Origin: Terriglobia bacterium | GTDB taxonomy: Bacteria; Acidobacteriota; Terriglobia; 2-12-FULL-54-10 | Assembly (NCBI GenBank): GCA_965222345.1 | Contig: CBDCTS010000004.1 | Coordinates: 641,625 to 705,624 of the forward strand | Reading direction: 5' to 3' | DNA: 64,000 nt | Part shown: positions 7,753 through 61,127 of the stretch, in pieces | Layout of the letters: every line of letters begins with the position of its first letter | How positions within the stretch are numbered: the first letter of the stretch is position 1 | Made by a program: the position numbers and the translations under genes | Notes under the pieces: model-generated | The model's database searches: none | Seen by the model: the letters and a program-made list of their open reading frames with translations, nothing else | What the model was told of the DNA's origin: nothing

Positions 7753-8529
7753 TCATCGTGCAGTCACGATAATTTCCGCACTTGAACCAGCCCCGCCGCG
7801 GTGCCGCCAGCTCTGTGTCTCGACGTTTTCGCCTTCGACGCGAATCTCGCCTGTGTTCGCATCGGCGTAGGAACAGTTTCCCTTGCGTCCCGTGCCGTTG
7901 ATGGCCTGCAACTCTACGGAATAGCGCTGGCCCGCCCTGACGTCAATCACATTGCAGGCCCAGTCGTTGTCGATCTCGCCCGAAAAAACCATGCGGCCGT
8001 CAACGGTAACGCTAATCCTGTCGCCGTCCTCGCATTCATGGTCCCGGACGCAAATCTGCAGGTCAGCGGAATCGCCGCTGATCCGCAAGTTGAAGTCCTG
8101 AATGTCCGTGTTCGAAAAGTCGTCTGGCGCCCAGTGCGTCTCGATGAGACCTCTACCATAGATCTGGCGGTCAAGATCCATATCCCTATCAAGCTGGCGT
8201 GAAGCGGCCTGCGGAGTCCCTTCGAAATAACAGAACTGATCGAAAAATAAATCAAATTCAGAATCGCTACCGTATTGGTCCCTGAGGAAATCGCGGAACG
8301 CGTTCTCATATCCAAGGGTGAAGGAGTAGTCTCCCAAAAACACCGCCGTGTAAAACGCGCGTATGCCACCGGGATCGACCGGCAATGTCTCCTTAAAGAC
8401 GCACCAAATATGGTCGTCGTCATTGGCGAGGGCAGCGGGCTGCAGGGCAACGGGCTGCGCAATCAGAAGGACCAGTAGTGTGGTAAGGATAGTGGCAAGC
8501 AGTGCAACATTCAGCTGTTTTACAGACAT
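7753..8529 (-). CDS. Secreted hypothetical protein (signal peptide)
   Basis: 258 aa; N-terminus MSVKQLNVALLATILTTLLVLLIAQPVA. No recognised domain. Confidence 0.55.
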   Translation of the reverse strand: MSVKQLNVALLATILTTLLVLLIAQPVALQPAALANDDDHIWCVFKETLPVDPGGIRAFYTAVFLGDYSFTLGYENAFRDFLRDQYGSDSEFDLFFDQFCYFEGTPQAASRQLDRDMDLDRQIYGRGLIETHWAPDDFSNTDIQDFNLRISGDSADLQICVRDHECEDGDRISVTVDGRMVFSGEIDNDWACNVIDVRAGQRYSVELQAINGTGRKGNCSYADANTGEIRVEGENVETQSWRHRGGAGSSAEIIVTAR

Positions 8530-8730
8530 GGCAATTCCCTTCTTTGTTGTTGTATTGACGTATGGGTTGAAAAGGACAGAATTAATCGTAGCTTGATCCT
8601 CTCGAGCGCCGAACCGGTGTCGCGGTCGCCGGAGGTGTACAAGCTGCGGCTGGCCGAACGGAGGACCCGCGGAATTGTTGCCCCAGGCACCGCCTCGCTT
8701 GCGGCAAGATATGCTGGTAGGTGCGGGGCG

Positions 8731-41149: not shown

Positions 41150-42564
41150 TGTCGTTAGCACATGATATGTCCGGTCTAATTAACATGTGAAATGTCCGCT
41201 TTGAGCGGCGTAGGGTAGGGCTTTTTGCCAGGAGGTGGCATGAAGTTCTACTCGGAAGCTGCGATGGAGCGGGCGATGAAGATACAAGAAGTAATTTTGC
41301 GAGCGATAGGGAAGCGGATCAACTGGTGGCAGGCAGCCGAGATCATCGGGATCAGCGACCGGCAGATGAGGCGGTGGCGCAGCCGGTACGAGCAGTACGG
41401 CTACGACGGGCTGTTTGACCGGCGGCGGGGAAAGCCGAGTCCGCGGCGGGTACCCCTGGGGACGGTGGAGAAGGTGTTGGGGCTGTATCAGGAGAAGTAC
41501 TTTGACTTCAACGTGCGGCACTTTCACGAAAAGCTGCGGGAAGAGCACGGCCTCCGGCTGAGCTACACCTGGGTGAAGCTGGCATTGCAAGGGGCGGGGC
41601 TAGTGAACAGGAGGCGGAAGCGGGGCCTGCACCGCCAGAGGCGGCCCCGGCGGCCGTTGCCGGGAATGCTGCTGCATCTGGATGGGAGCCAGCATCGGTG
41701 GTTTGTCGATGATCGCTGGTATGACCTGCTGGTGGTCCTGGATGATGCCAGCAGCGAGATTTACTATGCGCAACTGGTAGAGCAGGAATCGACGCGGACG
41801 GTGCTGGCTGCCCTGCGGGAGGTGGTCGAGCAGCAGGGGATCTTTTGCGCCCTTTATAGCGACCGGGCCAGTCATTTCTTCCTGACCCGGAAGGCGGGCG
41901 AGCCGGTGGATCGGCAACGGCTGACCCAGGTGGGCCGCGCCCTGCGGGAGCTGGGCATTCAGATGATTCCGGCCTATTCGCCGCAGGCGCGGGGACGCAG
42001 CGAGCGGAACTTCGGGACCTGGCAAGGGCGGCTGCCGCAGGAACTGCGCCTGCGGGGAATCATCACGCTAGAGGCAGCGAATCGGTTCCTGCGGGAGGGC
42101 TATATCGGGGAGTTCAACCGGCGCTTTGCCGTGCCGGCCACCCAACCAGGCAGCGCCTTTTTGCCGTCAGCCAGGCGGGAGTTAGAGCGAATCTTCTCGA
42201 TCCAGCACCAGCGGATAGTGAATCGGGACAATACGGTCAGTCTGGAGAACCGCCTCCTCCAGATCGAGAAAACTCCTTGGCGCGGGACTCTGGCGGGCTG
42301 CCGGGTGACCGTCTATGAACACCTGGATGGGACGTTAAGCATTGGCTATGGGCCGCACACGGTGGGCCGCTACTCCTCCGAGGGGGTGGCGATCCGGTGC
42401 GGCGGTCGGCGGCGGAGCCCTGTGGCTTCCCGACAACACCATTTGGCGCTCACCTCCGTCGCCCTACGGGCTCCTTCGGTCAGCGCCAAATCACTTTCGG
42501 TAGAATCATGAAAGCGGACATTTCACTTGCTACATATACCGGACATTTTAACTTGCTAACAACA
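41150..42564 (+). mobile_element. ISNCY-family (IS1202-group-like) insertion sequence with about 40-bp imperfect IRs and a 16-bp target-site duplication
   Basis: IRs tgtcgttagcacatgatatgtccggt...tgaaatgtccgcttt / reverse complement of ..aaagcggacatttca...accggacattttaacttgctaacaaca. Direct repeat ggcacaactcgacaag at 41134..41149 and 42565..42580. Confidence 0.8.
41225..42511 (+). CDS. ISNCY-family transposase (DDE)
   Basis: MKFYSEAAMERAMKIQEVI..WWQAAEIIGISDRQMRRWR N-terminus is typical of ISNCY/IS1202. The true start may be 41240. Confidence 0.85.
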   Translation: MPGGGMKFYSEAAMERAMKIQEVILRAIGKRINWWQAAEIIGISDRQMRRWRSRYEQYGYDGLFDRRRGKPSPRRVPLGTVEKVLGLYQEKYFDFNVRHFHEKLREEHGLRLSYTWVKLALQGAGLVNRRRKRGLHRQRRPRRPLPGMLLHLDGSQHRWFVDDRWYDLLVVLDDASSEIYYAQLVEQESTRTVLAALREVVEQQGIFCALYSDRASHFFLTRKAGEPVDRQRLTQVGRALRELGIQMIPAYSPQARGRSERNFGTWQGRLPQELRLRGIITLEAANRFLREGYIGEFNRRFAVPATQPGSAFLPSARRELERIFSIQHQRIVNRDNTVSLENRLLQIEKTPWRGTLAGCRVTVYEHLDGTLSIGYGPHTVGRYSSEGVAIRCGGRRRSPVASRQHHLALTSVALRAPSVSAKSLSVES

Positions 42565-42594: not shown

Positions 42595-42815
42595 GTCGGC
42601 AGATTCGGTTCCCTCGGTTGATTCGGTTTCTTCGGTTCTCTCGGAATGTTCGGTAGATTCGGGATGTTCGGTTCCTTCGGAAGAATCAGCCTATCTGTTT
42701 CCTTCGGTTCCCTCGGTTCCCTCGGCAGATTCGGCATCCTCGGTAGATTCGGTTTCCTCGGTTCTCTCGGAATGTTCGGTTCCTTCGGTAGATTCGGAAT
42801 CCTCGGAAGAATTTT
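42595..42815. repeat. Tandem array of about 24 nonamer repeats (consensus CGGNNNNTT), itself duplicated as two about 100-bp higher-order units
   Basis: Read directly: cggcagatt cggttccct cggttgatt cggtttctt ... repeated twice. Period is a multiple of 3 and lies inside overlapping low-confidence ORFs. Confidence 0.7.
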
Positions 42816-43256
42816 ATTGTCCCCGGAATTTGCGCCAGGGAGAATCGGGGCGGAGGGCGTTTGGGAGGTTTCAGGCTCCTTCTTTCGCCCCTTCCGGGGC
42901 TGATGCAGGGCTGCCTTTGCCACCCACGGCTGGCGTCGTGGGCTGGACTCTGGCGCCCCTCTGGGGCTACACAGGCGTTGCGGAAAGCTATAGACCGACT
43001 GTGAAAACCTTGCCGGGGGAAGGAGCAAGAAGAAAAAGCTTTTTTTGCAAAACGAACCCATTGCAAAACTTCAGAAATCCAGCCTAACTATTGCATATAA
43101 AAGAGATATAAAATATGCAGAAGATCGGGGCAATGGCTTCGTTATTGGCTTTGATTTGGCTTTGATTGGGGTTTGATTGGCCAAGAAAGCCAATGATTGG
43201 GGGGTAACAGGAAAGTCAGGGTGTTGATTTCCGGAGTCTCGCTTTGGCTGGAGGGT

Positions 43257-44402
43257 TTAGTTCCTCTTCTTCTGGCGCAAAAAGGCGGGCACGTCAAGGT
43301 CTTCTTTCTCAAAAGAACCGGTTAGGACGCCGGGCGCGTTGGAAGATGAGGAAACGCTCCAACCACGGGAAGGCCCGTCCGCCGCACCGACTTGCGAGCC
43401 GGCTGCCACCATCTCGGATTTGAAGCCGGTGGCGATCACGGTAACCTTGATCTGATCTTCCATCTTCTCATCCATGACCGCTCCAAACAGGATGTTGGCG
43501 TCTTCGTGGGCTGCCTGCTGGATCAGCGTGGCGGCTCCTTGCACCTCCTGCAAACGCAGGTTGCTGGAGCCGGTGATGTTGATCAGCACCCCGCGCGCGC
43601 CGTCAATGGAAGCATCCTCCAGCAAGGGGCTGGAGATAGCATTGCCGGCGGCTTCCAGGGCACGGTTGGGCCCGCTGGCTGTGGCCGTCCCCATTACTGC
43701 GTAACCCATCCTCTGCATGACGGTTTTCACGTCGGCGAAGTCGCGGTTGACGATTCCCGGAATAACGATGGTGTCGCTGATGCCCTGGACCGCCTGGCGC
43801 AAGACGTCATCGGCCAGTCGAAATGCCTCAAAGAAGCCCGTGTCCTGTTCCATTTGCAGGAGACGGTCGTTAGGGATCGTGATCATGGTATCCACGCTCT
43901 CGGACAGCTCCGTCAGGCCTATGTTAGCTTGCTGCTTCCGCCGCTTTCCCTCGAAGGTGAACGGCATGGTGACCACAGCCACCGTCAAGGCTTCCAATTC
44001 ATTGGCGAGACTGGCGACAATGGGCGCGGCTCCCGTACCGGTGCCTCCGCCCAAGCCTGCCGTCACGAAGACCATGTCGGCCCCTTCGAGCATTTCAATC
44101 AGCTTGTCGGTGTCCTCCAAGGCGGATTTGCGTCCCAGTTCCGGATCGGCTCCCGCACCGAGCCCCTTGGTCAGCTTGGCGCCGATTTGGATTTTGACTG
44201 GAGCATGGGACAGCTTCAAAGCTTGCAAGTCGGTGTTGGCCACCATGAATTCGACCCCCTGCAGCCGTGCGTCGATCATGCGGTTGACTGCGTTGCTGCC
44301 GCCCCCGCCCACGCCAATCACTTTGATCTTGGCCCCGTTTTGCAGGCCTTCCTGAAACGAAAAGCGGATGGAATCTTCCATGGTTGCATTCTCCGTTGGC
44401 AT
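43257..44402 (-). CDS. ftsZ: Cell division GTPase FtsZ
   Basis: [13 protein letters not shown] tubulin signature. Confidence 0.95.
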
Positions 44403-49477: not shown

Positions 49478-49963
49478 TTAGGAGGAAGCCTCCCATTCTT
49501 GGAATGCGTTCTGCCCGCGTTTCTGTAGCTCCTCCGGGGAAAGGTCCTCTTTGTGCGATGCCAGAGACCATCGATGGCCGAAGGGGTCTTCCAACTGTCC
49601 ATAGCGGTCACCCCAGAAGGCGTCCATCAGGGGCATGGTTTCGGTAGCACCGGCGGATACTGCCTGCTGAAATAGCGCATCTACATCCTCGACGTAGACG
49701 TGGATCGTAGTACCCGTGCCGCCGATCGACTGTGGGGAGAGCACCTTGTTGGATGGAAACTCATCATTCAACATCAGGAATGAGTCGCCGATCTTGAGCA
49801 GCGCGTGCATCACGGTCTTGCCGTCTGGCATGTGGTGGAGGCCGCACACCTCGGCGCTGAACGCCCGCTGGTAAAACTCGCTTGCCTGCACCGCATTCTG
49901 CACCACTAAGTGCGGCGTGAGCGTGTGGAAACCCTCGGGTATCGCCTTTACCTTCCCTGTCAT
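49478..49963 (-). CDS. VOC-family (glyoxalase/bleomycin-resistance-like, PhnB-type) protein inserted within the dcw cluster
   Basis: 161 aa with VOC-like fold features. 9 bp from the murC start. Confidence 0.75.
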   Translation of the reverse strand: MTGKVKAIPEGFHTLTPHLVVQNAVQASEFYQRAFSAEVCGLHHMPDGKTVMHALLKIGDSFLMLNDEFPSNKVLSPQSIGGTGTTIHVYVEDVDALFQQAVSAGATETMPLMDAFWGDRYGQLEDPFGHRWSLASHKEDLSPEELQKRGQNAFQEWEASS

Positions 49964-50035: not shown

Positions 50036-51139
50036 CTAGCCAACAAACCCCTTTGCAGTCCCGCCACGCCGGCGGACCATCCGTTCCAGTTCATCCACGA
50101 TGCGCGAGGCCGCTTCCGGATGAGCCATGGAGCGGATTGCGGACTCCATTTGCTCTAGCCGCTGGGGTTCTCCGAGCAATTCCTGGAGCACTGCGAAAAG
50201 CCTCTCCCCGGTCAGTTCCCGGTCCGGAATCAGCCGCGCCGCGCCGGATTCGGCCAGGGCCTGGGCGTTGCGCAACTGATGCTGGTTGGCCGCGCTGGGA
50301 AAGGGCACCAGAACGGCGGCCCTGCCTGCCGCCGCCAATTCCGCCAGGGTGTTGGCTCCAGCGCGGCAAACCACCACATCCGCCCTGGCAAATGCCTCCG
50401 GCATTCCCTCGATGTAGGGGAGAACCTCGGCGCGGAGCGAATGTTTTTCGTACGCTTGCTTCACTGCATTATATTCACTTTGCCCAGACTGATGCACGAG
50501 GAATAGATTCTCCCAGTGGCGGGCCAGTAGCGGCAAAGCTTCCACCGCCGCCCGGTTCAATGTTCGAGCCCCCTGGCTGCCCCCGAAGATGAGCACCCTA
50601 AAAGGAGGCTGATACCGCCGCGGCTCAGCCGCAAAGAACTCCCGCCGCACAGGGACGCCCACCACCGACGTCTTCCCCAAACCGAAGTGATCAACCGCCT
50701 GGGGAAAAGCCAGGAAAGCTCTCGTCACGTAGGGAGCGACCCAGCGGTTTGACAGGCCGGGAAACGCGTTCGGCTCGAGCACCGCCAGAGGAATGCCCGC
50801 GAAGGCGCTGGCCAGCATTACAGGCCCGGCCGCGTATCCTCCGACTCCCAACACCACATCGGGCTGAAATTTATCCTGGAGCCGGGATGCTTGCCACAAA
50901 GCGCGCGGCAACCGGAGAAGATTTCGCAAACGGGTCGCAGGCGATTGCCCCTGCAATGCCCGCACTTCCACCAGTTCCAATGGAAAACCGGCTGCGGGCA
51001 CCAGTCTGTTTTCCACTCCGCGGGCTGTGCCCACAAAAAGCACCCGGTGCTCCGGGCTGCGCTCGGAAAGCTCCCTGGCTACTACCAGGGCGGGTATTAC
51101 ATGACCTCCCGTTCCGCCCGCCGCCAAAAGGAGTCTCAT
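50036..51139 (-). CDS. murG: Undecaprenyldiphospho-muramoylpentapeptide beta-N-acetylglucosaminyltransferase
   Basis: LLAAGGTGGHVIPAL N-terminus; GT28 architecture. Confidence 0.9.
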   Translation of the reverse strand: MRLLLAAGGTGGHVIPALVVARELSERSPEHRVLFVGTARGVENRLVPAAGFPLELVEVRALQGQSPATRLRNLLRLPRALWQASRLQDKFQPDVVLGVGGYAAGPVMLASAFAGIPLAVLEPNAFPGLSNRWVAPYVTRAFLAFPQAVDHFGLGKTSVVGVPVRREFFAAEPRRYQPPFRVLIFGGSQGARTLNRAAVEALPLLARHWENLFLVHQSGQSEYNAVKQAYEKHSLRAEVLPYIEGMPEAFARADVVVCRAGANTLAELAAAGRAAVLVPFPSAANQHQLRNAQALAESGAARLIPDRELTGERLFAVLQELLGEPQRLEQMESAIRSMAHPEAASRIVDELERMVRRRGGTAKGFVG

Positions 51140-51164: not shown

Positions 51165-52256
51165 TTACTCTGTGTGCTGGGTGATGTTCAGCAAGATTCC
51201 GGCGGCGGCCATGCTACAAACCAGGGAACTTCCTCCATAGCTGATGAACGGCAACGGGATGCCTTTCGGGGGGATCAAGCCCAGCACCACGCTGATATTG
51301 ACCAGTGCCTGGCCCACAATCATGATCGTCAAGCCAGCGGCCAAGTAACGCCCAAAGTCATCTGGAGCCAGCAGGCTGGCACGCCATCCACGCCAAAAAT
51401 AGAGGCCGAAAAGCCCGATCAGCAGCGCGACTCCCGCCAAGCCTAGCTCTTCGGCTATCACCGAGAAAATAAAATCGGTATGGGGCGTCGGCAAGAAGAA
51501 CAGTTTTTGCTTTCCGTTCATCAATCCCAGCCCGGTGAGTCCACCGGTTCCGATGGCAATAAAAGATTGGATAATTTGAAACCCACTCCCTTGGGGATCT
51601 GCATAAGGATCGAGAAAGGCCAGAATGCGGGAGCGCCGGTAGCCGACGCGAAAAATTAAAAGGTAGAGCGCGGGAAGGCTGCCCAGTAACAAGTAGAAGA
51701 AGTACCGTAAGCGCAGCCCGGCCAGGAAAAACATCATGGAGGCGATCAGCACAATCACGATGGGTGTTCCCAGGTCTGGTTCCCGCAGAATCAATCCCAC
51801 CACCAAGCCAATCATCACCAGGGCTGGCAGCAGTGTGCGGAAAAAATCATTGACGCGCTGGCGGCGCTTCTCCAAAAAATAAGCCAAAAACAAAACCAGC
51901 ATGAGTTTGGCGAACTCCGATGGCTGCACCGAAAAAGGGCCCCAGCGGAGCCACCGGTTTGTATGTTGGTGGGCGTCGGTCATCAGCACGATCACCAACA
52001 ACACGAAGGCGAGAAAAATGCCGGGGAAAAGGACAGTCGGATGCCGCAGGCGGCGGTAATCGAGGCGCATCAGAAACAGCATCGCCACAATTCCCGTCGC
52101 GGTCCAAGCCAGTTGCTTCCAAAAGAAAGCATATGGACTCCCGTATTGGTCAGTGGCCAGGAGAGCAGAGCTGCTGAAGATCATCAGCAATCCAAAAAAG
52201 ACCAGCGCGAGGGTCACGGTAAACAGAATGCGGTCGAATGAAAAACGTTTAGCCAT
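51165..52256 (-). CDS. ftsW: Peptidoglycan glycosyltransferase FtsW (SEDS family)
   Basis: Multi-TM FtsW/RodA-like sequence; position within the dcw cluster. Confidence 0.9.
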   Translation of the reverse strand: MAKRFSFDRILFTVTLALVFFGLLMIFSSSALLATDQYGSPYAFFWKQLAWTATGIVAMLFLMRLDYRRLRHPTVLFPGIFLAFVLLVIVLMTDAHQHTNRWLRWGPFSVQPSEFAKLMLVLFLAYFLEKRRQRVNDFFRTLLPALVMIGLVVGLILREPDLGTPIVIVLIASMMFFLAGLRLRYFFYLLLGSLPALYLLIFRVGYRRSRILAFLDPYADPQGSGFQIIQSFIAIGTGGLTGLGLMNGKQKLFFLPTPHTDFIFSVIAEELGLAGVALLIGLFGLYFWRGWRASLLAPDDFGRYLAAGLTIMIVGQALVNISVVLGLIPPKGIPLPFISYGGSSLVCSMAAAGILLNITQHTE

Positions 52257-52312
52257 CCACTTTCCTTTTTCCTCGCCCCGTCCAAAGCCTCACGGCACGA
52301 GCGGCCCGGCTT

Positions 52313-53446
52313 CTAGCGCAACTTCAGCGTGGAAAGCGAGAACAGGGCCAGCACCAAAGCCGCGATCCAGAATCGGATGATGACCTTGGATTCGCTCCAG
52401 CCTTTCATTTCAAAGTGATGATGTAGAGGCGCCATCTGGAACAGCCGCCGTCCCCATAATTGAAACGAAGCCACCTGCAAGATCACCGACAACGCTTCGG
52501 CCACAAAGACGCCCGCGATCAGAAACAGCAAAATCTCCTGTTTGATGATGACGGCAACCGTGCCGATCGCGCCACCCAGCGCCAGAGAGCCCACGTCGCC
52601 CATGAAGATCTCCGCCGGATGGGAGTTGTACCACAGGAACCCCATACAGGCCCCGACCATGGCGCCGCAGAAGATGGTCACCTCCGCCACCTGCGGGATA
52701 TATTGCAACTCCAGATAGCGGGCAAAGACAGCGTGTCCGGTGACGTAACTCAGCACGGTTAGGGCTCCGGCAGCGACGATGCTGCAGCCGGCCGCCAATC
52801 CATCGAGGCCATCGGTGAGGTTAACGGCGTTACTGGCTCCCACGACGACCAGCACCACAAACAGGAGAAAGAAGCCGAAAGCCAGGGGATAGAAATATGG
52901 GTTGTCCATCAGGCTGTGGATGATCAGGTCCGGCGTGAATGTTTTGAAGAATGGCACGCTCAGGTTCGTTGAGTAGTTCCCTCGAATGGTCAAAAAGACC
53001 AGCCCCATCCCCACCAGCAAGCTGATCAGGATTTGCAGATAGAGCTTGGTCCTTCCGGAAAGACCCTTGCTGCGCTGACGGCGAATCTTATAGTAGTCGT
53101 CCAGGAACCCGACCACTGCGAACCCGAGCGTGGCCAGGATCACCATCCACACCAGTACATTCGACAGGTTCGCCCAGAGGAGCGTCGGCACCAGGATGGC
53201 TACGTTGATCAGAACCCCTCCCATGGTCGGAGTCCCGGCCTTGTCCTGATGCGAGCGGGGACCTTCTTCCCGAATATATTGCCCGATCTGAAATTCTCTC
53301 AGACGCGCGATGAGCCAGGGGCCCACCACCAGACAAATCAGCAAGGCCGTCAGGGTGGCGAAGGCAGTTCGGAAGGTCACGTACTGAAAGACCCGGAACG
53401 GGGTGAAATAAGGAAAAAGCTGTTCGAAAAGAAGATAGTACAGCAT
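52313..53446 (-). CDS. mraY: Phospho-N-acetylmuramoyl-pentapeptide transferase
   Basis: MraY motifs (GFLDDY; multi-TM). Confidence 0.9.
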   Translation of the reverse strand: MLYYLLFEQLFPYFTPFRVFQYVTFRTAFATLTALLICLVVGPWLIARLREFQIGQYIREEGPRSHQDKAGTPTMGGVLINVAILVPTLLWANLSNVLVWMVILATLGFAVVGFLDDYYKIRRQRSKGLSGRTKLYLQILISLLVGMGLVFLTIRGNYSTNLSVPFFKTFTPDLIIHSLMDNPYFYPLAFGFFLLFVVLVVVGASNAVNLTDGLDGLAAGCSIVAAGALTVLSYVTGHAVFARYLELQYIPQVAEVTIFCGAMVGACMGFLWYNSHPAEIFMGDVGSLALGGAIGTVAVIIKQEILLFLIAGVFVAEALSVILQVASFQLWGRRLFQMAPLHHHFEMKGWSESKVIIRFWIAALVLALFSLSTLKLR

Positions 53447-53456
53447 GGAATCGCAC

Positions 53457-54932
53457 CTATCGCTCAGGCCGTGACAAAACGTTCTGTTGCCAGACTTCCC
53501 AGACTCTTTCCAGATGCACCGCCCGCGAAGCCTTCAGCAACACCACATCTCCCTCTTGCAACGTGTTCTGCAACCCGCGGGCCGCCTCTTCAGCCGAATC
53601 AAAGTGGGCCAGAGCTTCCGGCCGCAGCCCCGCTGCGCGCGCGCCGCCGACAAAAGACCGCGCCTCCTCACCGACCGTAAAGAGACCGTCAAAGGACAAC
53701 TCGCCCAGCCGGTAGCCGCACCGATAATGCAGCATCTCAGAGGACGGACCCAACTCCCGCATCTCCCCCAGAACCGCAAAGCGCCGCCGGGCACTCAGCG
53801 AGGCAACTGAGACTAGCATGGCTTCCAGCGCCTCCGGGTTGGAGTTGTAGCAATCGTTCACAACCAACGCCCCGTTCGCCAGCCGGATCAACTCGCCCCG
53901 CATGGGAGCAGGCCGCAGGCCTTTTACGGCTTCGCGCAAGCCAGCCGGCGGAAGGCCGAAGCAATAGCAGGCAGCAAGAGCAGCCAGCAGGTTGAGTACA
54001 TTATGCCGCCCAACCAGAGGCAGATGAAAGAACTCGTCGGAAGGCGTCTCCGGAGGCGGGACGCGAGATGGCGCTTTTGCTTTCCACACCGAACCCGGCG
54101 GGACAGCCTGGAACGGTTCAGCCGGAACCGTGAACCGAAACTCACCGCTCCCGTTTCGTTCCAGACCTTGCGCACGGAAATGGGCGGGACCCGAAACTCC
54201 GAAATAGAGAGCGCGGCCAGGAAGCCGTTCGCCGAAGGAGCGAACCTTAGGATCGTCAGCATTCAGCACGGCCCAGGCCTGGGACCCGAGTGATTCAATC
54301 AGCTCGAACTTGGCGCGAGCGATCGCCTCCACGTCCGGGAAAAATTCCAAATGAACGGCGCTGACGTTGGTTACAACACCTACGTCGGGAGCCGCTAAAT
54401 TTGCCAGCGAGCGGATTTCGCCGGGACCGGACATCCCTAACTCAAATACACCTGCCTCTGTTTCCGGTTGCAGACGCAGCAGCGAAAGCGGCAGCCCCAA
54501 ATGATTGTTGAGGTTCCCCTCGCTGGCCAGCACCCGAAACCGCGTGCCGAGAAGCGCTGCGATCATCTGCTTGGTAATGGTCTTCCCGGCGCTGCCCGTC
54601 ACCGCCACCAACGGCCCTCCCCAACGGCGGCGCACCGCCGCTGCCAGTTTTTGCATCGCTTCCAGAGTGTCCCGCACCCCGATCAGTTTCGGCTGGCTGC
54701 AGGATACGAAACTCTCTCGGCAGGAGGAGCTGACCACCGCGCCCGCGGCTCCAGCAGCCAGGGCTGCCGGAACAAAATCGTGGCCGTCGAAGTTCTGTCC
54801 TCGAACGGCAAAAAACAGCTCCCCAGGCAGAATCGTCCGCGAATCGATGGAATAACCCGCTGCCCGCAAGTTCGGCAGCGAGGGCGGAGATGTCTCCATC
54901 ATCCGGGCGATTTCACCGAAGCTGAGTTCCAT
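53457..54932 (-). CDS. murF: UDP-N-acetylmuramoyl-tripeptide-D-alanyl-D-alanine ligase
   Basis: Mur ligase motifs (VAVTGSAGKT); sits 10 bp downstream of the mraY stop. Confidence 0.9.
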   Translation of the reverse strand: MELSFGEIARMMETSPPSLPNLRAAGYSIDSRTILPGELFFAVRGQNFDGHDFVPAALAAGAAGAVVSSSCRESFVSCSQPKLIGVRDTLEAMQKLAAAVRRRWGGPLVAVTGSAGKTITKQMIAALLGTRFRVLASEGNLNNHLGLPLSLLRLQPETEAGVFELGMSGPGEIRSLANLAAPDVGVVTNVSAVHLEFFPDVEAIARAKFELIESLGSQAWAVLNADDPKVRSFGERLPGRALYFGVSGPAHFRAQGLERNGSGEFRFTVPAEPFQAVPPGSVWKAKAPSRVPPPETPSDEFFHLPLVGRHNVLNLLAALAACYCFGLPPAGLREAVKGLRPAPMRGELIRLANGALVVNDCYNSNPEALEAMLVSVASLSARRRFAVLGEMRELGPSSEMLHYRCGYRLGELSFDGLFTVGEEARSFVGGARAAGLRPEALAHFDSAEEAARGLQNTLQEGDVVLLKASRAVHLERVWEVWQQNVLSRPER

Positions 54933-55213
54933 GGGCGTGGTAATGCCTTTCTAGCCGTTCCCGTCGGTAACGAAAATCAATTGATGAACTCCAATTCTTC
55001 GGCCAACCAGTCGCGGGCAAGATCGTCGGATGAGAAAATGGCCGCGTCCACAAGACATGGGAGAATGCCAGCAGTTTCACACAATGCCAGAACCCCATCC
55101 TCTACAAACTCGTAGTAATTCCAATCGGCTAGGGCGGTCGGGCTAAGTTGGGGGAATTATGCAGCAAAATACGCAGGGGCAAGATCATCTCGCCACAATA
55201 GATCCGACTCGTT

Positions 55214-55480
55214 TCATAGACTGCGTTTCCACTTAATCTCGGTAACATGGGAAAGGCCCAGGAGCCTTCCCGCTAGTTCCGTATGGAGATTCCAATCTTC
55301 ATCGTCGAATGGAACACCGACTATCCTTCCATGAGTGTCATCATCAATAATGAACTCGAGGTCCAAATCAAGAATGGCCGAACGCTCCAGTGCGGCCACT
55401 CCGTTTCCTCGCATGATTGTTTGTTGGGCAAGTTCGAGACTTGAAGCAGTTGATAACCCATCATCATCCCTGCCGCGCAC
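55214..55480 (-). CDS. Hypothetical protein (low confidence)
   Basis: 88-aa ORF in a lower-GC insertion. No motif. Confidence 0.3.
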   Translation of the reverse strand: MRGRDDDGLSTASSLELAQQTIMRGNGVAALERSAILDLDLEFIIDDDTHGRIVGVPFDDEDWNLHTELAGRLLGLSHVTEIKWKRSL

Positions 55481-55551
55481 AGGTCGATATGCCTTGTCGG
55501 TTAGAACTCCATCCTCGAACCAGCTTGGCTTCAGCGCCCGATAAGCATGTT

Positions 55552-56172
55552 CTAGCCAGGGAATAGCTGCCCCTCCGGATCGTGCTCGTTTTGGGCTAGA
55601 GAGATTTCCTGGGCTATGCGTTTAGGATCAGGGTTGGATTTGGTGCTAAAGGAGCCGACGGGCATCATTATGGAACCCGTTTGCAAAAGGCTTGGCCTAT
55701 TAGGAAAGGTCGCCAATCTAACTATCCGATCGCCATCTCTCCAAGTGGCGCTTAGCTCTCCATAGAAGCTGGAGACTTGTGCGTAAGGCATCTCTGGTAA
55801 AGCCTCAACTACACTACGGATTAGCCGAATCATTTCATCTACTACTTTCTGGGGCGGCGCTTCTTCATCCTCGTCGCGCATCGCCTCGTCCTCCGATAAT
55901 CTGATGATGCGCTGTATAATCCTTTCCGCAACGTTCCGTTGCTCACATACCAAAGCTGCAATGTTCCCCTCCGCTGAAAAGGCTCCATCCATGCTAGCGT
56001 TTACTAGGTACGGAGGCATCGCTGTCGAAAATGCAAAAACCAGCGGAGCTAGGAATCTAGCACTGTGAGAAGATCGTTGATCTTCCTGGATCTCATTATT
56101 ATAACTAAGCATTCCCTGTTTGCTCCCCCGGTTTTCTGTCGCGAATTTTCTCCAATTCGCCGATCTTATCAC
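55552..56172 (-). CDS. Hypothetical protein
   Basis: 206-aa ORF in the lower-GC insertion. Confidence 0.4.
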   Translation of the reverse strand: MIRSANWRKFATENRGSKQGMLSYNNEIQEDQRSSHSARFLAPLVFAFSTAMPPYLVNASMDGAFSAEGNIAALVCEQRNVAERIIQRIIRLSEDEAMRDEDEEAPPQKVVDEMIRLIRSVVEALPEMPYAQVSSFYGELSATWRDGDRIVRLATFPNRPSLLQTGSIMMPVGSFSTKSNPDPKRIAQEISLAQNEHDPEGQLFPG

Positions 56173-56713
56173 CCAACCACTTATGAAGTGCCGTTGCGGT
56201 GTTCACATCCATCACGATGCCGACTTCTACTTCCCTCACAAATCCCTCCTTCTCTATGCGCTCTTCACGGAGTTCTGTACTGAGAGAATCACCCTTAACG
56301 GCATGTACAGTGCGCTGCGGGATGGGTGCTCGCTCATTGTAAAACGCCGCGAAAATGGTTCCTCTTGGCGTGACCCCACCGTGTGCTCCGTCTGCGTGGA
56401 TAACGCGGTAGCAACTGCTTTTTATAAAAGAGAACTTGATTTTTTTCGGTGGTTCCATCTCGCGTGCAATTGCTCGGCCCAGCCCTTTTAAGGGGGTGTG
56501 GCAACATGTTAAATTTATCGGCGCTCCAGCCTGTAACGCTCGCAGCTCTTTTCTCGTTGGCGTCCGGTTTTCGCTGTGCTGGCCCTCGGGTCGGTCGGCC
56601 AGTAGCACCTGCTTTAGCGCATCGGTCAGGTCTTTCTTGGAAACCGGCATCCGTTCTTTCCGGTCGGAAGACGACTTGGCTTGATTCCTCCCCATTGAGG
56701 AAACCCTCCTCAA
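56105..56713 (-). CDS. Hypothetical protein
   Basis: 202-aa ORF. Overlaps the previous ORF by 68 bp, so the true start may be internal. Confidence 0.4.
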   Translation of the reverse strand: MRRVSSMGRNQAKSSSDRKERMPVSKKDLTDALKQVLLADRPEGQHSENRTPTRKELRALQAGAPINLTCCHTPLKGLGRAIAREMEPPKKIKFSFIKSSCYRVIHADGAHGGVTPRGTIFAAFYNERAPIPQRTVHAVKGDSLSTELREERIEKEGFVREVEVGIVMDVNTATALHKWLGDKIGELEKIRDRKPGEQTGNA

Positions 56714-56817
56714 TCCATCCGCTGAGGCATTCTCCCACGGGAACCAAGAATCGTCAAGGCTCGGGCCGTGATAGAGCCGTCACTCGGGCGGTTTTGATTT
56801 TCCACACGATATCACAG

Positions 56818-57792
56818 TCACGCCTGAATTGGGATGGAAGAAAGCCCGTTCTTCGCCACGAGCTCGGCGTAGGGGATGCGGGAATCGGTGAGTTGACGCG
56901 CCAGGGCTTCCATGCGGTCCAGGGTGTCAATCTCGCAGTTTCCATCGTTCAGCCGGAACGTAGCCTCATTTACATACTTGGCAAGATGCTTCGGAGAAAC
57001 GTGATGCCAAGTCCCGTGCACGGACCTCTTGAATAGCGCCCACACGGATTCAATCGAGTTGGTTGAGACGGCCCCGCGAACGTATTCCCTAGCTCCATGA
57101 TTGATGATCCTGTGCCGGAACTGCCTGTTGGAGAGGCGGTCATAGGCCAGGGCTTCGTCGGTGTATACGGTTGCTCCGGGCTTGACTGAATCTGCCACAA
57201 AATCGGTCAGCGTGTCTGCATTGGCATGCTCAACGGGCTTGGCAATGACTTTCCCGCCACGCTCGCGGATGCCAGCCACGATTGCCTTTCCCACTCCGCC
57301 ACGTCCAGCATGTAGGCGCTTGTTGGAATGTTTGCTGGATTCCTTCCCGCCGACATAGCACCCATCGGCTTCCACGACATTCTTCAGGATGAAGTCGGTT
57401 CGGCCGCAAGCCTCTCGCACACGATGGAGCATGTACCAGGCCGTCCGATATTGCACTCCCAGTTCCTTGTGAAGCTGCATGGCGCTCACGCCCTTTCGGG
57501 CCGTCATGACGCAATAGATCGCGTAAATCCAATTCTGCAAGGGGGTCTTGCTGGCGTGCATACAGGTTCCCGTGGTGACGGTGAAATACCGTCGGCAGTC
57601 TTTGTGCCAGTAGTGGTATGGCTTACTCTCCGATGGTGAGATATTCTCCGTGTTCTTGCAGCGCGGGCAAACCGGCTTTCCATTCCACCGGGCTTGCTCG
57701 AACCACTTGTAGCAGGCATCCTCGGTCGGAAACATCCGTTGCAGTTCGGCAACGCTGATCGTTTTGGCCTTGCGCTTCGCTTGCTTCATCAT
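56818..57792 (-). CDS. IS1595-family transposase (Zn-ribbon + DDE_Tnp_IS1595)
   Basis: N-terminal CPRCKNTENISPSE zinc ribbon and ISXO2-like DDE core (YRTAWYMLHR, VYTDEALAY). Confidence 0.85.
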   Translation of the reverse strand: MMKQAKRKAKTISVAELQRMFPTEDACYKWFEQARWNGKPVCPRCKNTENISPSESKPYHYWHKDCRRYFTVTTGTCMHASKTPLQNWIYAIYCVMTARKGVSAMQLHKELGVQYRTAWYMLHRVREACGRTDFILKNVVEADGCYVGGKESSKHSNKRLHAGRGGVGKAIVAGIRERGGKVIAKPVEHANADTLTDFVADSVKPGATVYTDEALAYDRLSNRQFRHRIINHGAREYVRGAVSTNSIESVWALFKRSVHGTWHHVSPKHLAKYVNEATFRLNDGNCEIDTLDRMEALARQLTDSRIPYAELVAKNGLSSIPIQA

Positions 57793-57895
57793 ATCCCCCT
57801 ATCTGCGTATTATTATATCTACCAGTTCCAGGACTGTCAAGGGGATTGTGTATTTTTAGGGAATTTTCTAGAATTTCATCGGAAGAGGAATTCTG

Positions 57896-58162
57896 ATGAG
57901 AATATTTGTCATCCTGACCGATCCAGCAAACGAGAATCTGGAAAAGGCCATCAAAAGCGAGTTTCCAGAAAAATACTACGACTTCGGAGACGGCCAATGG
58001 TTCGTGGCTGGCGAAGGAACTGCTAGTTTTGTATACGGCAAGCTAGACAATGCCAAAGCGTATGGAGACATTGGCTCGATGGTAGTTCTTTCCACACTGG
58101 GATATGACGGTTACGCCAGCACCAAATTATGGGATTGGTTGATTGCGATGAAGGAACAATGA
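57896..58162 (+). CDS. Hypothetical small protein
   Basis: 88-aa ORF in the AT-rich insertion. Confidence 0.35.
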   Translation: MRIFVILTDPANENLEKAIKSEFPEKYYDFGDGQWFVAGEGTASFVYGKLDNAKAYGDIGSMVVLSTLGYDGYASTKLWDWLIAMKEQ

Positions 58163-58503
58163 ACGGCCAAGACAGCGAATCTGAATCCCGCCAATCCGCT
58201 AAAGAGCGAGGTCCGTATACCCAGGATCTCGAGCCTCGATTAAGGGTGGTCGAGGGTGAGATACGAGAACTGAAAGTCGAATTGAAGCACACGGCAACCA
58301 AGGAATATATTTCAGAGCGGGAAACATCGATGTTTCGCTGGTTGGTTGGGATTTTGCTCGCAGCGGGAGCTGCTATTCTTGCCGCGCTCATCAGGACATT
58401 CGTAGACTACCCCCCCCCCCGCTGCGTATTTTGCTGCATAATTCCCAAAGTTGGTTGCACCTGCGTCGCCAACCTTTTTGCCCCTTCTCAGCCCATGCTC
58501 TGA
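58156..58503 (+). CDS. Small coiled-coil/TM protein (possibly XhlA/holin-like). Overlaps the antisense ORF 58312..58806
   Basis: LRVVEGEIRELKVELKHTATKEYI followed by the TM helix LVGILLAAGAAILAALI. A C11 tract lies at 58410..58420. Confidence 0.3.
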   Translation, partial: TMNGQDSESESRQSAKERGPYTQDLEPRLRVVEGEIRELKVELKHTATKEYISERETSMFRWLVGILLAAGAAILAALIRTFVDYPPPRCVFCCIIPKVGCTCVANLFAPSQPML

Positions 58504-58806
58504 CGCCTTTGCTTCTACAAAATCGGAGAGGCTTTTGATTTCCCGCTCGCATTCCGAAAGCCTGAGAGGAAATGGGGTTGACTTTAGAAAATTAGCCAGC
58601 CGGCTACCAGGACCAGACCTCTGCTGTGTGCTCAACAAACACGCCACCATGACATACCAGAACCTGTCCCGAGAAAACTTGGGGAGTTTTTCTAAAACGA
58701 TATTCCTCTCTTGCCGATTTTTTACAAAAGGGCGATCCTTCATCATGTCCATCAACTTACATACCCTTTCCACATCGGCATCTTCAATATTCCATGCAAC
58801 ATTCAT
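58312..58806 (-). CDS. Hypothetical protein. Overlaps 58156..58503 on the opposite strand, so only one is likely to be real
   Basis: 164-aa ORF; protein-like for the first about 100 aa. Confidence 0.3.
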   Translation of the reverse strand: MNVAWNIEDADVERVCKLMDMMKDRPFVKNRQERNIVLEKLPKFSRDRFWYVMVACLLSTQQRSGPGSRLANFLKSTPFPLRLSECEREIKSLSDFVEAKASEHGLRRGKKVGDAGATNFGNYAAKYAAGGGVVYECPDERGKNSSSRCEQNPNQPAKHRCFPL

Positions 58807-58849
58807 TGCACCATCTTCCTAGCCCAGAAGGGCGGCAGAATCTCGTCCA

Positions 58850-58990
58850 GGGTGCTAGCCCTGGGATGCGAGAATTCCCAAACGAGCCGAGCCCCGTAGG
58901 GGCGTCATCCTCTGGCCCACGGTGAAAACCGTGGGAACAGAGGTGACCAAACAGGCCAGCCCCGTCAGGGGCGACATACTTCGGTCTTCA
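58850..58990. repeat. REP-like GC-rich hairpins flanking the RAYT (left cluster)
   Basis: gccccgtaggggc, cccacggtgaaaaccgtggg and gccccgtcaggggc. Confidence 0.5.
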
Positions 58991-59440
58991 GTCCAAAACA
59001 AATCGTGGATAATACGCGATTCCGTGTTGCTTCAGAAAACTCACCAACTCCTCCTGAAAGCTCCTCTTCCGATGATGCTCTTCCTGGTTTCGAATATACG
59101 TTTTCACCGCCTCCACTTGCGACCGGCTGACACTGAAAGCAGCATACCCGGTTTGCCACGCGAAGCGTGCCCGCTGCGGCCACTACTGGTGCACCCAGCG
59201 CGATGAATTTGCCTTAACCTTTTTCATCAACTCGGCGACTCCCAGGGCGGCCGGCTGAACGAACAATAGGTGAACATGGTCGCTCGGACCGTTAATCAGC
59301 AGGGGCTTGCCCTTCAGCTTGGCGATGATCCCACCCATGTAGGGAAACAGTTCCGACTTCAGCTCTGCGTCTAGATGAGATCGGCGGTGCTTGGTGCTGA
59401 ACAGGGCATGGATCACGATCTGGCTGAAGGTATGGGCCAT
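58988..59440 (-). pseudogene. IS200/IS605-family Y1 (HUH) transposase/RAYT-like gene interrupted by an in-frame amber codon (59183..59185)
   Basis: N-terminal part HVHLLF..SSRWVHQ, then TAG, then WPQRARFAWQTGYAAFSVSRSQVEAVKTYIRNQEEHHRKRSFQEELVSFLKQHGI. Together these form a complete TnpA-like sequence. Confidence 0.7.
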
Positions 59441-59600
59441 GGATGTCGCCCCTGCCGGGGCTTCGCGCTCCCTTTGGTCTGTCTTCCCACGGCTACCGCC
59501 GTGGGCTACAATCTTGCGCCCCTGCCGGGGCTGGCTGTGAACTCCTCCGCTAGCCCCATGCGCAACTGACTCCCCTCGGCTGCACTCGGGGCAGGCCTGG
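59440..59600. repeat. REP-like GC-rich hairpins flanking the RAYT (right cluster)
   Basis: gcccctgccggggc twice, cccacggctaccgccgtggg and ccccatgcg...cgggg. Confidence 0.5.
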
Positions 59601-61127
59601 CTACTGACTCCCGACTACCGATTCCTCCCTAAACCCCAACTTGCCGAGCACCCTCCGGGCTACCTCCCGGTCGTCAAAGGGAACCCTCTGGTCTCCAACA
59701 ATCTGGCAGGTCTCGTGCCCTTTGCCCGCCAGCCACACAGTGTCTCCCGAGCGGGCCTCCCGCAGGGCCATCTCAATGGCCAGCGCGCGGTCCGGCTCCA
59801 CCGTGTAGTTCGCCTTGACTTTCTGCAAGCCGACGGAGATGTCGTTCAGAATCCGGATCGGGTCCTCAGAGCGAGGATTGTCGGAAGTGAGCACAACCCA
59901 ATCGCTCTCTGCAGCCGCCATGCCCATCAAAGGCCGTTTGGCGCGGTCCCGGTCTCCCCCACAGCCGAAAACCAAAATAACCCGGCCCTGGTTTGTCAAT
60001 CTCCGGGCAGAAGAAAGCAGGTTACGCAGGGCGTCTTCGGTGTGGGCATAATCGACAAAGACTCGAAATGGCTGGCCTTCATCGACAGCCTCGAAGCGGC
60101 CGGGAACCAGCACCGGCAGGATACCCCGCGCGATGGCCTCCGGGGCGATATCCAATGTAAGCGCCGCAGCGATAGTGGCGAGCAGGTTATAGACATTGTG
60201 GCGGCCCTGCAAAGGCGAGCAAACCTCTACCGGACCCGCCGGCGTCGTCGCCGTGAATTCCAGCCGTTCCCGGCTCCCTTTCCATTTTCGGACGGTGACG
60301 TCGGCCGGCGATTGCATTCCGTAGGTAATCACCCGGCTACCCGTCCTGGCTCGCAGCGCGGCAGCGTGAGGGTCATCTTTGTTGAGCACCGCGAAGGCCG
60401 GCTCGGCGCCCTCCGGGGCAGGGAGAAAAAGCTTCTCCTTGGCCGCGAAATATTTCTGCTCATCCAAGTGGAAATCCAGGTGGTCACGGGAGAAATTGGT
60501 AAAAACGGCGGCATGAAACGAGCAGCCCGCAACACGGCTGAGCGCCAGCGCGTGCGAGGAAACCTCCATAACCGTGGACCGTCCTCCCTCCTCGGCCACC
60601 TCTCGCAGCATTTTTTGAAGCTCCAAAGACTCCGGGGTCGTGTTTGCAGATGACCAGCGTCTGCGATTCTCTCCAGGACACAGGCGAGACTCAATTGTTC
60701 CGAGCAAGCCGGGTCTCCATCCGGCAACCTCCAGAACAGAGGCCAGCAGGAAGGCCACAGTGGTTTTACCGTTGGTCCCGGTGATGCCCACCAGTTTGAT
60801 CCGCCGGGACGGATGTCCATAGAATTGGCTCGCCGCCAGGGCCAGCGCCCTTCGTACATCGGTGACCTGAACCCAGACAGAGGAGCCTGCAGCCAACTCC
60901 TCACCCGGCAAGGACGCGGGGGGATTTTCGCTGACAACGGCAAGGGCGCCATGCAAAAGCGCTTCCGGAATGAATCGGTTTCCGTCTTGCTGAAAGCCGT
61001 GAATGGCAAAAAAAACCTCTCCAGCCGAAACCCGCCGGGAGTGGTATGCCAAGCCGGCGACCGGCAGACTGCGATCTCCGAAAATCTGGGCCTCGGGGAC
61101 TTGCTCGAAAAGTTCCTGAAGGTTCAT
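59601..61127 (-). CDS. murE: UDP-N-acetylmuramoyl-L-alanyl-D-glutamate-2,6-diaminopimelate ligase
   Basis: Mur ligase motifs (GITGTNGKTT, DNPRSE). Confidence 0.9.
   Translation of the reverse strand: MNLQELFEQVPEAQIFGDRSLPVAGLAYHSRRVSAGEVFFAIHGFQQDGNRFIPEALLHGALAVVSENPPASLPGEELAAGSSVWVQVTDVRRALALAASQFYGHPSRRIKLVGITGTNGKTTVAFLLASVLEVAGWRPGLLGTIESRLCPGENRRRWSSANTTPESLELQKMLREVAEEGGRSTVMEVSSHALALSRVAGCSFHAAVFTNFSRDHLDFHLDEQKYFAAKEKLFLPAPEGAEPAFAVLNKDDPHAAALRARTGSRVITYGMQSPADVTVRKWKGSRERLEFTATTPAGPVEVCSPLQGRHNVYNLLATIAAALTLDIAPEAIARGILPVLVPGRFEAVDEGQPFRVFVDYAHTEDALRNLLSSARRLTNQGRVILVFGCGGDRDRAKRPLMGMAAAESDWVVLTSDNPRSEDPIRILNDISVGLQKVKANYTVEPDRALAIEMALREARSGDTVWLAGKGHETCQIVGDQRVPFDDREVARRVLGKLGFREESVVGSQ

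Follow-up and report, generated by a model that had tools for sequence, protein, structure and literature searches.

Probable nested acquisitions of mobile DNA between murE and murF of a Terriglobia bacterium, and a probable reassignment of Acido-Lenti-1 to a Y1 transposase repeat module

Single Y1 transposase genes bracketed by inverted palindromic repeats are familiar from the REP-associated tyrosine transposases (RAYTs), whose repeats (repetitive extragenic palindromes, REPs) are also dispersed through genomes without the gene. REPs are usually species- or genus-specific. Among Acidobacteria, RAYT-like 'TIRYT' genes with long inverted repeats, some of which are repeated in the genome, were described by Di Nocera et al. 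2013 (PMC3733652). The Acido-Lenti-1 motif (RF01687) was described as a likely small RNA (sRNA) of unknown function in Acidobacteria and Lentisphaerae that displays covariation, and its published alignment comprises 89 representatives, to which Lentisphaera genomes contribute many copies each (Weinberg et al. 2010, PMC2864571). Among insertion sequences (ISs), the IS1595-family element ISApl4 is reported to make 8-bp duplications and to have repeats starting with GGGG (PMC12561309). The present analysis concerns a stretch of 64,000 nucleotides from a Terriglobia bacterium of the Acidobacteriota (GenBank assembly GCA_965222345.1, contig CBDCTS010000004.1), referred to here as the window. Relatives of all of these elements lie in the window between murE and murF, two genes of the dcw (division and cell wall) cluster, together with the remains of a putative DNA glycosylase gene that we call orfX.

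The spacer between murE and murF occupies exactly positions 54933-59600 (4,668 bp), and both of the genes that flank it are intact and score above their NCBIfam cut-offs (Table 1). The original prediction, which was made from the sequence alone, described the two genes as parted by inserted-looking, AT-richer DNA, and measurement agrees with it: the spacer has a GC content of 53.1% versus 59.2% in the flanking dcw genes, and the lowest-GC stretch of 3.3 kb in the window is the transposon stretch around position 55600 (0.522; window mean 0.586, standard deviation 0.019). The same prediction viewed this DNA as one 4.6-kb insertion, a view that gives way to three nested layers of different ages once intermediate states in relatives are considered. 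We estimate a probability of roughly 0.8 that the spacer represents three independent acquisitions at one dcw junction, namely orfX, a Y1 transposase element and an IS1595-family transposon. All three layers are of known kinds, and the locus is an ordinary case of mobile-element layering inside a conserved operon.

The order of the layers follows from comparison with related loci (numbered with the prefix L). Five contigs (L001-L005) encode a MurF protein identical to that of the window, and three of them, the long metagenome contigs L001-L003, are 98.8-99.9% identical to the window in DNA sequence. The murE-murF spacer of L001-L003 is only 1.6-2.2 kb long and contains the Y1 gene and one open reading frame (ORF) of 246-284 aa as called, with no transposon. 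Alignment of these contigs to the window ends at position 58447 and picks up again at 55150, and a further 261 unaligned nucleotides between the breakpoints in L001 and L003 are absent from the window. L006, an Acidobacteria metagenome-assembled genome (MAG) whose MurF is 66% identical, has the order ftsI-murE-orfX-murF with gaps of 44 and 64 nt around orfX and no Y1 gene. At greater distance lie 67 metagenome loci with MurF proteins 45-65% identical, none of which has orfX or Y1 between murE and murF; the spacer is at most 235 bp in 66 of them, the uninterrupted junction for which the original prediction had suggested looking, and 566 bp in the other. No copy of the three-hairpin unit that flanks the Y1 gene in the window is present in the 96-235 bp that separate murE from murF in the closest metagenome relatives, and the murE-murF junction was therefore not pre-seeded with hairpins. 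Taken together, L006, L001-L003 and the 67 loci indicate that orfX was acquired at the level of the lineage, Y1 and its repeats at the level of the species and the transposon in the window only, this being the one locus among those compared where the transposon was seen at the site.

Arrival of all of these genes in one event, as a single low-GC island of 4.6 kb inserted between murE and murF, would fit the uniform lowering of GC content over most of the spacer as well as the short spacers of distant relatives. Such an island is scarcely credible, however, as orfX occurs alone in L006, L001-L003 have orfX and Y1 without the transposon, and the transposon, besides having a second copy elsewhere, sits inside orfX within inverted repeats and a target duplication of its own; it is these intermediate states in relatives that rule the single event out. 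The original prediction allowed that related genomes with the same gene content would mark the DNA as ancestral, which turns out to describe orfX and Y1, while the transposon stands as an insertion.

The three acquisitions can be considered from the oldest to the youngest. Counted from its first ATG in L002, full-length orfX encodes 264 aa, and its product is one of a family of proteins of about 250 aa for which 927 homologues were matched, some of them named 8-oxoguanine DNA glycosylase or N-glycosylase/DNA lyase by their sources. A profile of 39 family members matches the M. jannaschii Ogg protein (MjOgg; PDB 3FHF) with an E value of 1.1e-3. Two residues, K171 and D190, are invariant in the 39 sequences and fall within the segment aligned with the HhH-GPD region of MjOgg; from our reading of the HhH-GPD motif we take them to correspond to the catalytic Lys and Asp of that enzyme. 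PF22175 (Ogg-HhH) is matched by 15 of the 39 homologues (best E value 3.7e-05), and the orfX protein of the window's lineage has no match in Pfam. These similarities suggest that orfX is a gene for a distant Ogg2-type HhH-GPD glycosylase/AP (apurinic/apyrimidinic)-lyase. More distant homologues (no more than 49% identical) are found in unrelated genomic contexts, and among the homologues compared orfX lies inside the dcw operon in the window's lineage only. An ancestor of this acidobacterial lineage would have acquired the gene, which lies co-oriented and tightly packed between murE and murF.

Judged from its sequence, orfX is inactivated in the window, where it is split by the transposon and has lost codons 121-209. 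A 164-aa ORF that the original prediction regarded as an orphan, and that would be annotated as 'hypothetical', is the 5' half of this conserved Ogg2-like gene, older than the other layers and broken by the transposon. Excision of the transposon in silico rejoins the two orfX fragments in frame but leaves a shortened ORF, because the net loss in the window is 267 nt, or 89 codons (residues 121-209), with K171 and D190 among them. The excised sequence as a simple restoration of orfX was therefore rejected, the comparison with L001 and L003 showing that 267 bp more are missing. In L001 and L003 the ancestral sequence reads ...ACCAACTTT up to the first breakpoint and CGATGG... beyond it, and ...GCTTCAACTT up to the second breakpoint and AGCCC... 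beyond it.

The youngest layer, the transposon, is delimited by 28-nt inverted repeats (GGGAATTATGCAGCAAAATACGCAGGGG) that are complementary at 27 of 28 positions, with 0 such pairs expected by chance. Its transposase combines a DDE_Tnp_IS1595 catalytic domain with an N-terminal zinc ribbon and scores well above the NF033547 cut-off of 75 bits, in agreement with the IS1595 assignment of the original prediction. Terminal inverted repeats and an 8-bp target duplication, both features of the IS1595 family, are present, although the left copy of the duplication retains 7 of 8 nt; it reads (A)AGTTGG, and the missing base falls at the endpoint of a deletion. A second copy of the transposon on contig L210 is 99.8% identical over 2,962 bp and diverges from that of the window at the right inverted repeat (IRR), beyond which L210 has a different flank, indicating that the transposon is mobile as a unit. 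DDE transposition would have placed the element, with its transposase and five passenger ORFs, into orfX at AAAGTTGG with duplication of 8 bp. In the simplest history, insertion at CCAACTTT would have been followed by a deletion of 268 nt between 6-nt microhomologies (CAACTT), with the loss of codons 121-209.

Members of the IS1595 family reportedly carry genes unrelated to transposition, as the title of a 2009 paper by Siguier, Gagnevin and Chandler suggests. In the window the transposase is followed downstream by three co-oriented ORFs (117, 186 and 88 aa), and two divergent ORFs (88 and 114 aa) lie on its other side. Apart from the 164-aa fragment, these are the ORFs that the original prediction called orphan or hypothetical, and their annotation should record that they belong to a 3.3-kb transposon with 28-bp inverted repeats. 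The 117-aa gene corresponds to an ORF of 202 aa in the program-made list, but its 12 homologues of 115-156 aa align only to the C-terminal 58% of that ORF, and gene calls on L210 and L211 agree with the 117-aa start; the 202-aa ORF is thus to all appearances over-extended at its 5' end and likewise calls for correction. The genes for the 117-aa and 186-aa proteins share 8 nt. On L211, a contig of 2.9 Mb, a 59%-identical homologue of the 117-aa gene is followed by a 184-aa ORF in the same arrangement with no IS nearby, which suggests that the two genes are a small cassette picked up by the transposon. The 186-aa protein has 91 cluster representatives at an E value of 1e-3 or lower, and its family corresponds to no Pfam family. 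None of the passenger proteins has a match in Pfam, NCBIfam, PADLOC or PHROGs, and a Foldseek search of PDB with the AF2 model of the 117-aa protein (pLDDT 74.5) gave no match (best E value 1.1). A similarity of the family profile of the 186-aa protein to designed 'Pizza' propeller proteins came only from summed short-repeat matches, no single stretch of which was significant, and was discarded as an artefact.

The divergent 114-aa ORF is the coiled-coil/transmembrane (TM) ORF of the original prediction, whose label 'XhlA-like' did not hold up, the protein having no match to the XhlA family model at an E value of 10 or lower and none in Pfam, PHROG or PADLOC. This ORF has no stop codon inside the transposon; its counterpart on L210 (375-698) ends in the other flank and is 107 aa long. 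Its last residues derive from the IRR and host DNA, so that the C-terminus varies with the insertion site. murF and the genes downstream of it are intact, and their transcription presumably proceeds by read-through, possibly aided by a consensus promoter in the transposon that faces murF.

The middle layer consists of the Y1 gene and its flanking repeats. The gene is in frame throughout except for a single TAG at codon 86, which together with its Pfam match (Table 1) bears out the original prediction of a Y1 transposase with one amber codon. The motifs H55-V-H57 and Y115-x3-Q119 align with the HIH and Y-x3-Q motifs of the ISHp608 TnpA and are invariant in 19 homologues, and the Y1/HUH catalytic core typical of RAYTs is thus encoded, albeit in an allele that the TAG truncates. 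Codon 86 is CAG in L002 and TAG in the window, L001 and L003. The Y1 gene of L003 differs from that of L002 by C256T alone, while that of the window has in addition G430T, which replaces Asp144 (D144Y), a residue conserved in at least 90% of the 19 homologues. The original prediction had asked whether the TAG is read through or is a recent nonsense mutation. The alleles argue for a recent, polymorphic CAG-to-TAG nonsense mutation, a new mutation being favoured over programmed read-through because the TAG is polymorphic in the population. The Y1 gene of the window would have died through the change at codon 86, followed by D144Y. A further allele, P0133, which is 99% identical to the Y1 of the window and lies on a 433-kb ENA contig, encodes HVR in place of the HUH motif (H57R), a second, independent inactivating change. 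Within the species, the 150-aa HUH/Y1 gene would have come to lie between murE and orfX together with the repeats that bracket it.

These repeats are inverted copies, one on each side of the gene, of a unit some 85 nt long that comprises three hairpins: hp1 (TCGCCCCT-N2/3-GGGGCT), hp2 (CCCACGG-N6-CCGTGGG) after 22-24 nt, and hp3 (CGCCCCT-N2/3-GGGGCT) after another 12 nt. It is hp1 (GCCCC/GGGGC) that adjoins the Y1 gene on either side. GC-rich hairpins on both sides of the gene had been part of the original prediction, and they exceed chance: GCCCC-N4-GGGGC occurs 4 times in the window versus 0.37 expected, and no shuffle reached 4. Exact copies of the hp2 sequence are present at 58916 and 59486, and a copy at 42923, within a solitary third unit, has one mismatch. 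The further proposal that the hairpins are REP-type repeats is likewise upheld by the inverted module around Y1, by this third copy and by the numerous occurrences in other genomes. An array with a 9-nt period (TCGGNNNNN, about 23 copies, with super-periods of 18, 27 and 45 nt) immediately precedes the solitary unit, at 42596-42806, and may encode a tripeptide repeat or constitute a repeat family of its own. In L002 a 285-bp segment at 8404-9258 (equivalent to window positions 58994-58710), comprising the unit and the 5' end of orfX, is present in three tandem copies, giving rise to extra ORFs of 78 aa and extra Acido-Lenti-1 matches.

A scan of genomes for the exact hp1 and hp2 pattern located the unit at more than 119 loci in Acidobacteriota, Verrucomicrobiota, Planctomycetota, Limnocylindrales, Dongiaceae, Hydrogenedentota and others. 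Several assemblies hold at least 3-6 of these loci, with at least 6 in one assembly. BLAST comparison of the 119 listed loci with the window found no overlap, and the species of the window is therefore not represented among them. Among these 119 loci, a Y1 homologue or remnant stands beside the unit in 7, with 6 of the 7 arranged as in the window, and two or more units are present in 25, mostly as gene-less inverted doublets of about 200 nt that resemble REPINs. The exceptional arrangement, in a Pirellulaceae MAG (L044, 5135-6055), has a doublet upstream of Y1 and a downstream unit in the opposite orientation and may be a variant unit architecture. No Acido-Lenti-1 match was found in 137 kb of dcw regions from more distant Acidobacteria, and the unit is therefore not universal there.

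The association of the unit with Y1 holds in both directions. Inverted units flank Y1 in the window, in L002 and in L039 and L110, the last two of which were found through the unit. Conversely, L212, L215/L216 and L217 were chosen by their Y1 protein alone (60-68% identical), and each has a unit on both sides in inverted orientation, with hp1 at 4-8 nt before the start codon and, on the other side, 12-22 nt past the stop codon; the stems of hp2 and hp3 covary. Inverted palindromic repeats flanking the gene, as in RAYT systems, are accordingly present at all of these loci. L215 and L216 have the same Y1 protein and differ by about 237 bp downstream of it (L216, 3453-3770), where L216 appears to have an extra partial unit, which hints at a change in unit copy number. 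By analogy with IS200/IS605 and RAYT enzymes, the Y1 protein would bind and cut the unit hairpins as single-stranded DNA. The occurrence of units without the gene, singly or as inverted doublets, would correspond to that of REP/REPIN elements. The 3' arm of hp1 (GGGGCGA) coincides with the would-be ribosome-binding site of Y1 (window 59441-59447; also L212, L216, L217, L039 and L110), and one may speculate that folding of hp1 in the mRNA could mask this site. Masking of a ribosome-binding site by an mRNA hairpin has been described for IS200.

Alternatively, Y1 and its flanks could be an ordinary, recently active IS200-type insertion sequence rather than a domesticated REP-associated transposase. 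The only NCBIfam match of the protein is transpos_IS200 (67 bits; cut-off 55), its nearest relatives among solved structures are the TnpA proteins of ISHp608, Sulfolobus and ISDra2, and NCBI names its homologues 'IS200/IS605 family transposase'. No match to E. coli TnpA-REP was obtained in PDB at an E value of 1 or lower, and by sequence the protein is not a member of the canonical RAYTs of that type. The ends of IS200/IS605 elements, however, are asymmetric and in direct orientation, whereas the Y1 flanks are inverted copies of one unit. Moreover, Y1 occupies the same site in four assemblies of the species (the window and L001-L003), one homologue, for which 24 contigs were read, keeps to a single chromosomal site in each of the 10 places shown, and units far outnumber genes and form gene-less inverted doublets. 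JGI names many of the homologues 'RayT', and acidobacterial relatives were assigned to the RAYT-like 'TIRYT' group by Di Nocera et al. 2013 (PMC3733652). An ordinary IS200-type element is thus unlikely, and the Y1 module is RAYT/TIRYT-like by architecture without being a canonical RAYT.

The unit has also been seen from another side, for in each of the window's three units the hp2-hp3 part exceeds the gathering threshold (GA) of the RF01687 covariance model, which is 37 bits. Acido-Lenti-1 is probably not an sRNA gene. It would instead be the outer pair of hairpins in a DNA module some 85 nt long whose inverted copies enclose the genes of a uniform clade of 150-aa Y1 transposases and which would have spread across phyla without the gene, as units and inverted doublets. 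On this view it would amount to a REP/REPIN-like system that crosses phylum boundaries and whose stems are conserved to an unusual degree. The units could instead act as RNA, whether as sRNAs, terminators or mRNA stabilisers, with the nearness to Y1 being incidental. REPs in intergenic places can stabilise transcripts, and one unit of the window (59448-59531) lies just after murE and another (42887) between converging long ORFs. RF01687, moreover, is typed as a gene/sRNA with covariation (Weinberg 2010). A role as RNA is nevertheless improbable given that Y1 has units on either side, in opposite orientations and at set distances from its start and stop codons (6 of the 6 further Y1 loci displayed), and that units form inverted doublets and are not followed by a T-run. 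In addition, the non-Watson-Crick pairs of the Rfam seed, read on the annotated strand, comprise 38 A.C and 8 G.U pairs, the reverse of what is expected for an RNA from that strand, counted by sequences of which most are from one genome. If one strand is selected to fold, there is a hint that it is the complement of the annotated strand, which carries an xTAG head beside hp2 as GTAG-type REPs do. No link between RF01687 and a Y1 transposase was found in the papers examined that mention the motif, though it may be noted elsewhere.

Some observations count against the interpretation given here of a layered locus with a REP-like module. The window holds three units, two of which are beside Y1, leaving one extra copy in 64 kb, and in sequence the Y1 protein has more in common with the TnpA of IS200/IS605 than with the RAYT of E. 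coli. The left copy of the target duplication lacks one base, the order of insertion followed by deletion is inferred from microhomology, and the promoter directed toward murF is a match to the consensus from which function is predicted. The exact window transposase and the truncated 164-aa ORF matched no contig in the assembly index. This last observation could point to an artefact of assembly, the window's transposon being a repeat misplaced into the dcw region, as could the presence of the only other copy on a contig of 2x coverage (L210) and the 267 bp missing beside the imperfect duplication. The junctions, however, are exactly at the inverted repeats, 7 of 8 nt of the duplication are in place and microhomology marks both ends of the deletion. 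None of this would arise from a chimera, and an artefact is very unlikely.

Table 1. Features of the murE-murF spacer and its surroundings, in window coordinates
Feature	Position	Strand	Description
Solitary third unit	42887-42967	+	gap between converging long ORFs 41225-42511 (+) and 43257-44402 (-); RF01687 39.9 bits
murG	50036-51139	-	dcw gene
ftsW	51165-52256	-	dcw gene
mraY	52313-53446	-	dcw gene
murF	53457-54932	-	intact; first dcw gene downstream of spacer; Pfam Mur_ligase N/M/C domains; TIGR01143 384 bits
orfX 3' fragment	54977-55144	-	last 55 codons and stop; 99.6-99.8% identical to L001/L003 downstream of breakpoint
Target-site duplication, left copy	55145-55151		7/8 nt, AAGTTGG; outer edge is endpoint of 268-nt deletion
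IS1595-family transposon	55152-58446	-	3,295 bp; left inverted repeat 55152-55179, IRR 58419-58446; passenger genes
Passenger ORF	55214-55480	-	88 aa; from ORF list
Passenger gene, second of two-gene cassette	55552-56112	-	186 aa; conserved C-terminal domain
Passenger gene, first of two-gene cassette	56105-56458	-	117 aa
IS1595-family DDE transposase	56818-57792	-	324 aa, intact; PF12762 2.4e-42, PF12760 3.9e-08, NF033547 191 bits
Predicted sigma-70 promoter	57812-57840	-	perfect TTGACA-17-TATAAT, 12/12; 20 nt upstream of transposase gene, toward murF
Passenger ORF	57896-58162	+	88 aa; stop overlaps next ORF start (ATGA); called as gene on L210
Coiled-coil/TM ORF	58159-58503	+	114 aa; reads through IRR into flanking DNA
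Target-site duplication, right copy	58447-58454		8 bp, AAAGTTGG
orfX 5' fragment	58447-58806	-	codons 1-120; aligns collinearly with L001-L003 as far as 58447
Three-hairpin unit downstream of Y1	58891-58972	-	hp3 58891-58903, hp2 58916-58935, hp1 58959-58972; RF01687 38.4 bits at 58890-58935; DNA fold z = -5.7
Y1 (RAYT/TIRYT-type) transposase pseudogene	58988-59440	-	TAG at 59183-59185 (codon 86); D144Y; PF01797 5.6e-24
Three-hairpin unit upstream of Y1	59448-59531	+	hp1 59448-59461, hp2 59486-59505, hp3 59518-59531; RF01687 41.4 bits at 59486-59532; hp1 7 nt from start codon
murE	59601-61127	-	intact; NF001126 519 bits
ftsI	61275-63431	-	dcw gene
ftsL	63490-63915	-	dcw gene

The surrounding dcw cluster has peculiarities of its own. 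murD is missing from its usual place, mraY being followed directly by ftsW after a gap of 56 nt (window 51165-53446), and the Mur ligase gene after murG is murC (TIGR01082, 519 bits). The mraY-ftsW gap is short (42-172 nt) in all relatives with MurF at least 60% identical (L130, L132-L134 and L136) and at least 1.4 kb in relatives with MurF 45-49% identical (among L142-L209); murD seems to have departed from the dcw cluster in the clade of the window. A glyoxalase-family gene (PF00903, 161 aa) between murG and murC, at about 49480-49960 on the minus strand of the window and at 14970-15455 in L001, is another non-canonical resident of the cluster. L148, which covers the dcw region of a distant acidobacterium, has a group II intron domain (RF01999, 58.5 bits) at 13301-13396, downstream of murF by a few kb.

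The locus illustrates how one junction of an essential and highly syntenic operon can take up mobile DNA repeatedly while the flanking genes are kept, with intermediate states (empty site, intact Y1 allele and dead Y1 allele) surviving in the population. Of wider interest is that Acido-Lenti-1, so far listed as an sRNA, probably belongs to the repeat module of a Y1 clade. If this reassignment is correct, RF01687 would be reclassified as a DNA repeat, and one protein with three hairpins would offer a tractable system in poorly known phyla.

Each layer can be set against its closest described counterpart. Like M. jannaschii Ogg (PDB 3FHF/3KNT; PF22175), the orfX family keeps the HhH-GPD segment with its Lys and Asp (GFGPK...PIDSR), but the relation is very distant (profile E value of 1e-3), the protein of the window's lineage is without a Pfam match, and orfX differs further in its residence in the dcw operon of this lineage and its inactivation in the window. 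The transposon shares with IS1595 elements that carry passengers, such as ISApl4 (PMC12561309), the zinc ribbon and DDE_Tnp_IS1595 domains, repeats starting with GGG(G) and the 8-bp duplication. It differs in that its passengers are five uncharacterised ORFs, including a cassette (117 and 186 aa) that also occurs free of an IS in L211, and in that one of the passenger ORFs runs out of the element without meeting a stop codon.

The Y1 module resembles the REP/RAYT and TIRYT/TIRtron systems (PMC3733652) in having a single Y1/HUH gene bracketed by inverted palindromic repeats and in the dispersal of such repeats without the gene, singly, in dimers or in clusters; as in REP/RAYT systems, the complementary strand has an xTAG head next to hp2, which is GTAG in the copy at 59448-59531. 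Unlike REP/RAYT systems, it has a transposase closer to the IS200/IS605 TnpA than to the E. coli RAYT, a flank that is a fixed three-hairpin unit rather than a single REP, and stems that recur across phyla (Acidobacteriota, Verrucomicrobiota, Planctomycetota and others), and the copy in the window is a pseudogene. With RF01687 the module has hp2 and hp3 in common, which score above the GA in all three units of the window. It departs from the sRNA description in that these two hairpins are always accompanied by a third, nearly invariant hp1 (22-24 nt away in the window and more widely spaced elsewhere), that units of the window type flank Y1 transposase genes in inverted pairs, and that they occur in several more phyla.

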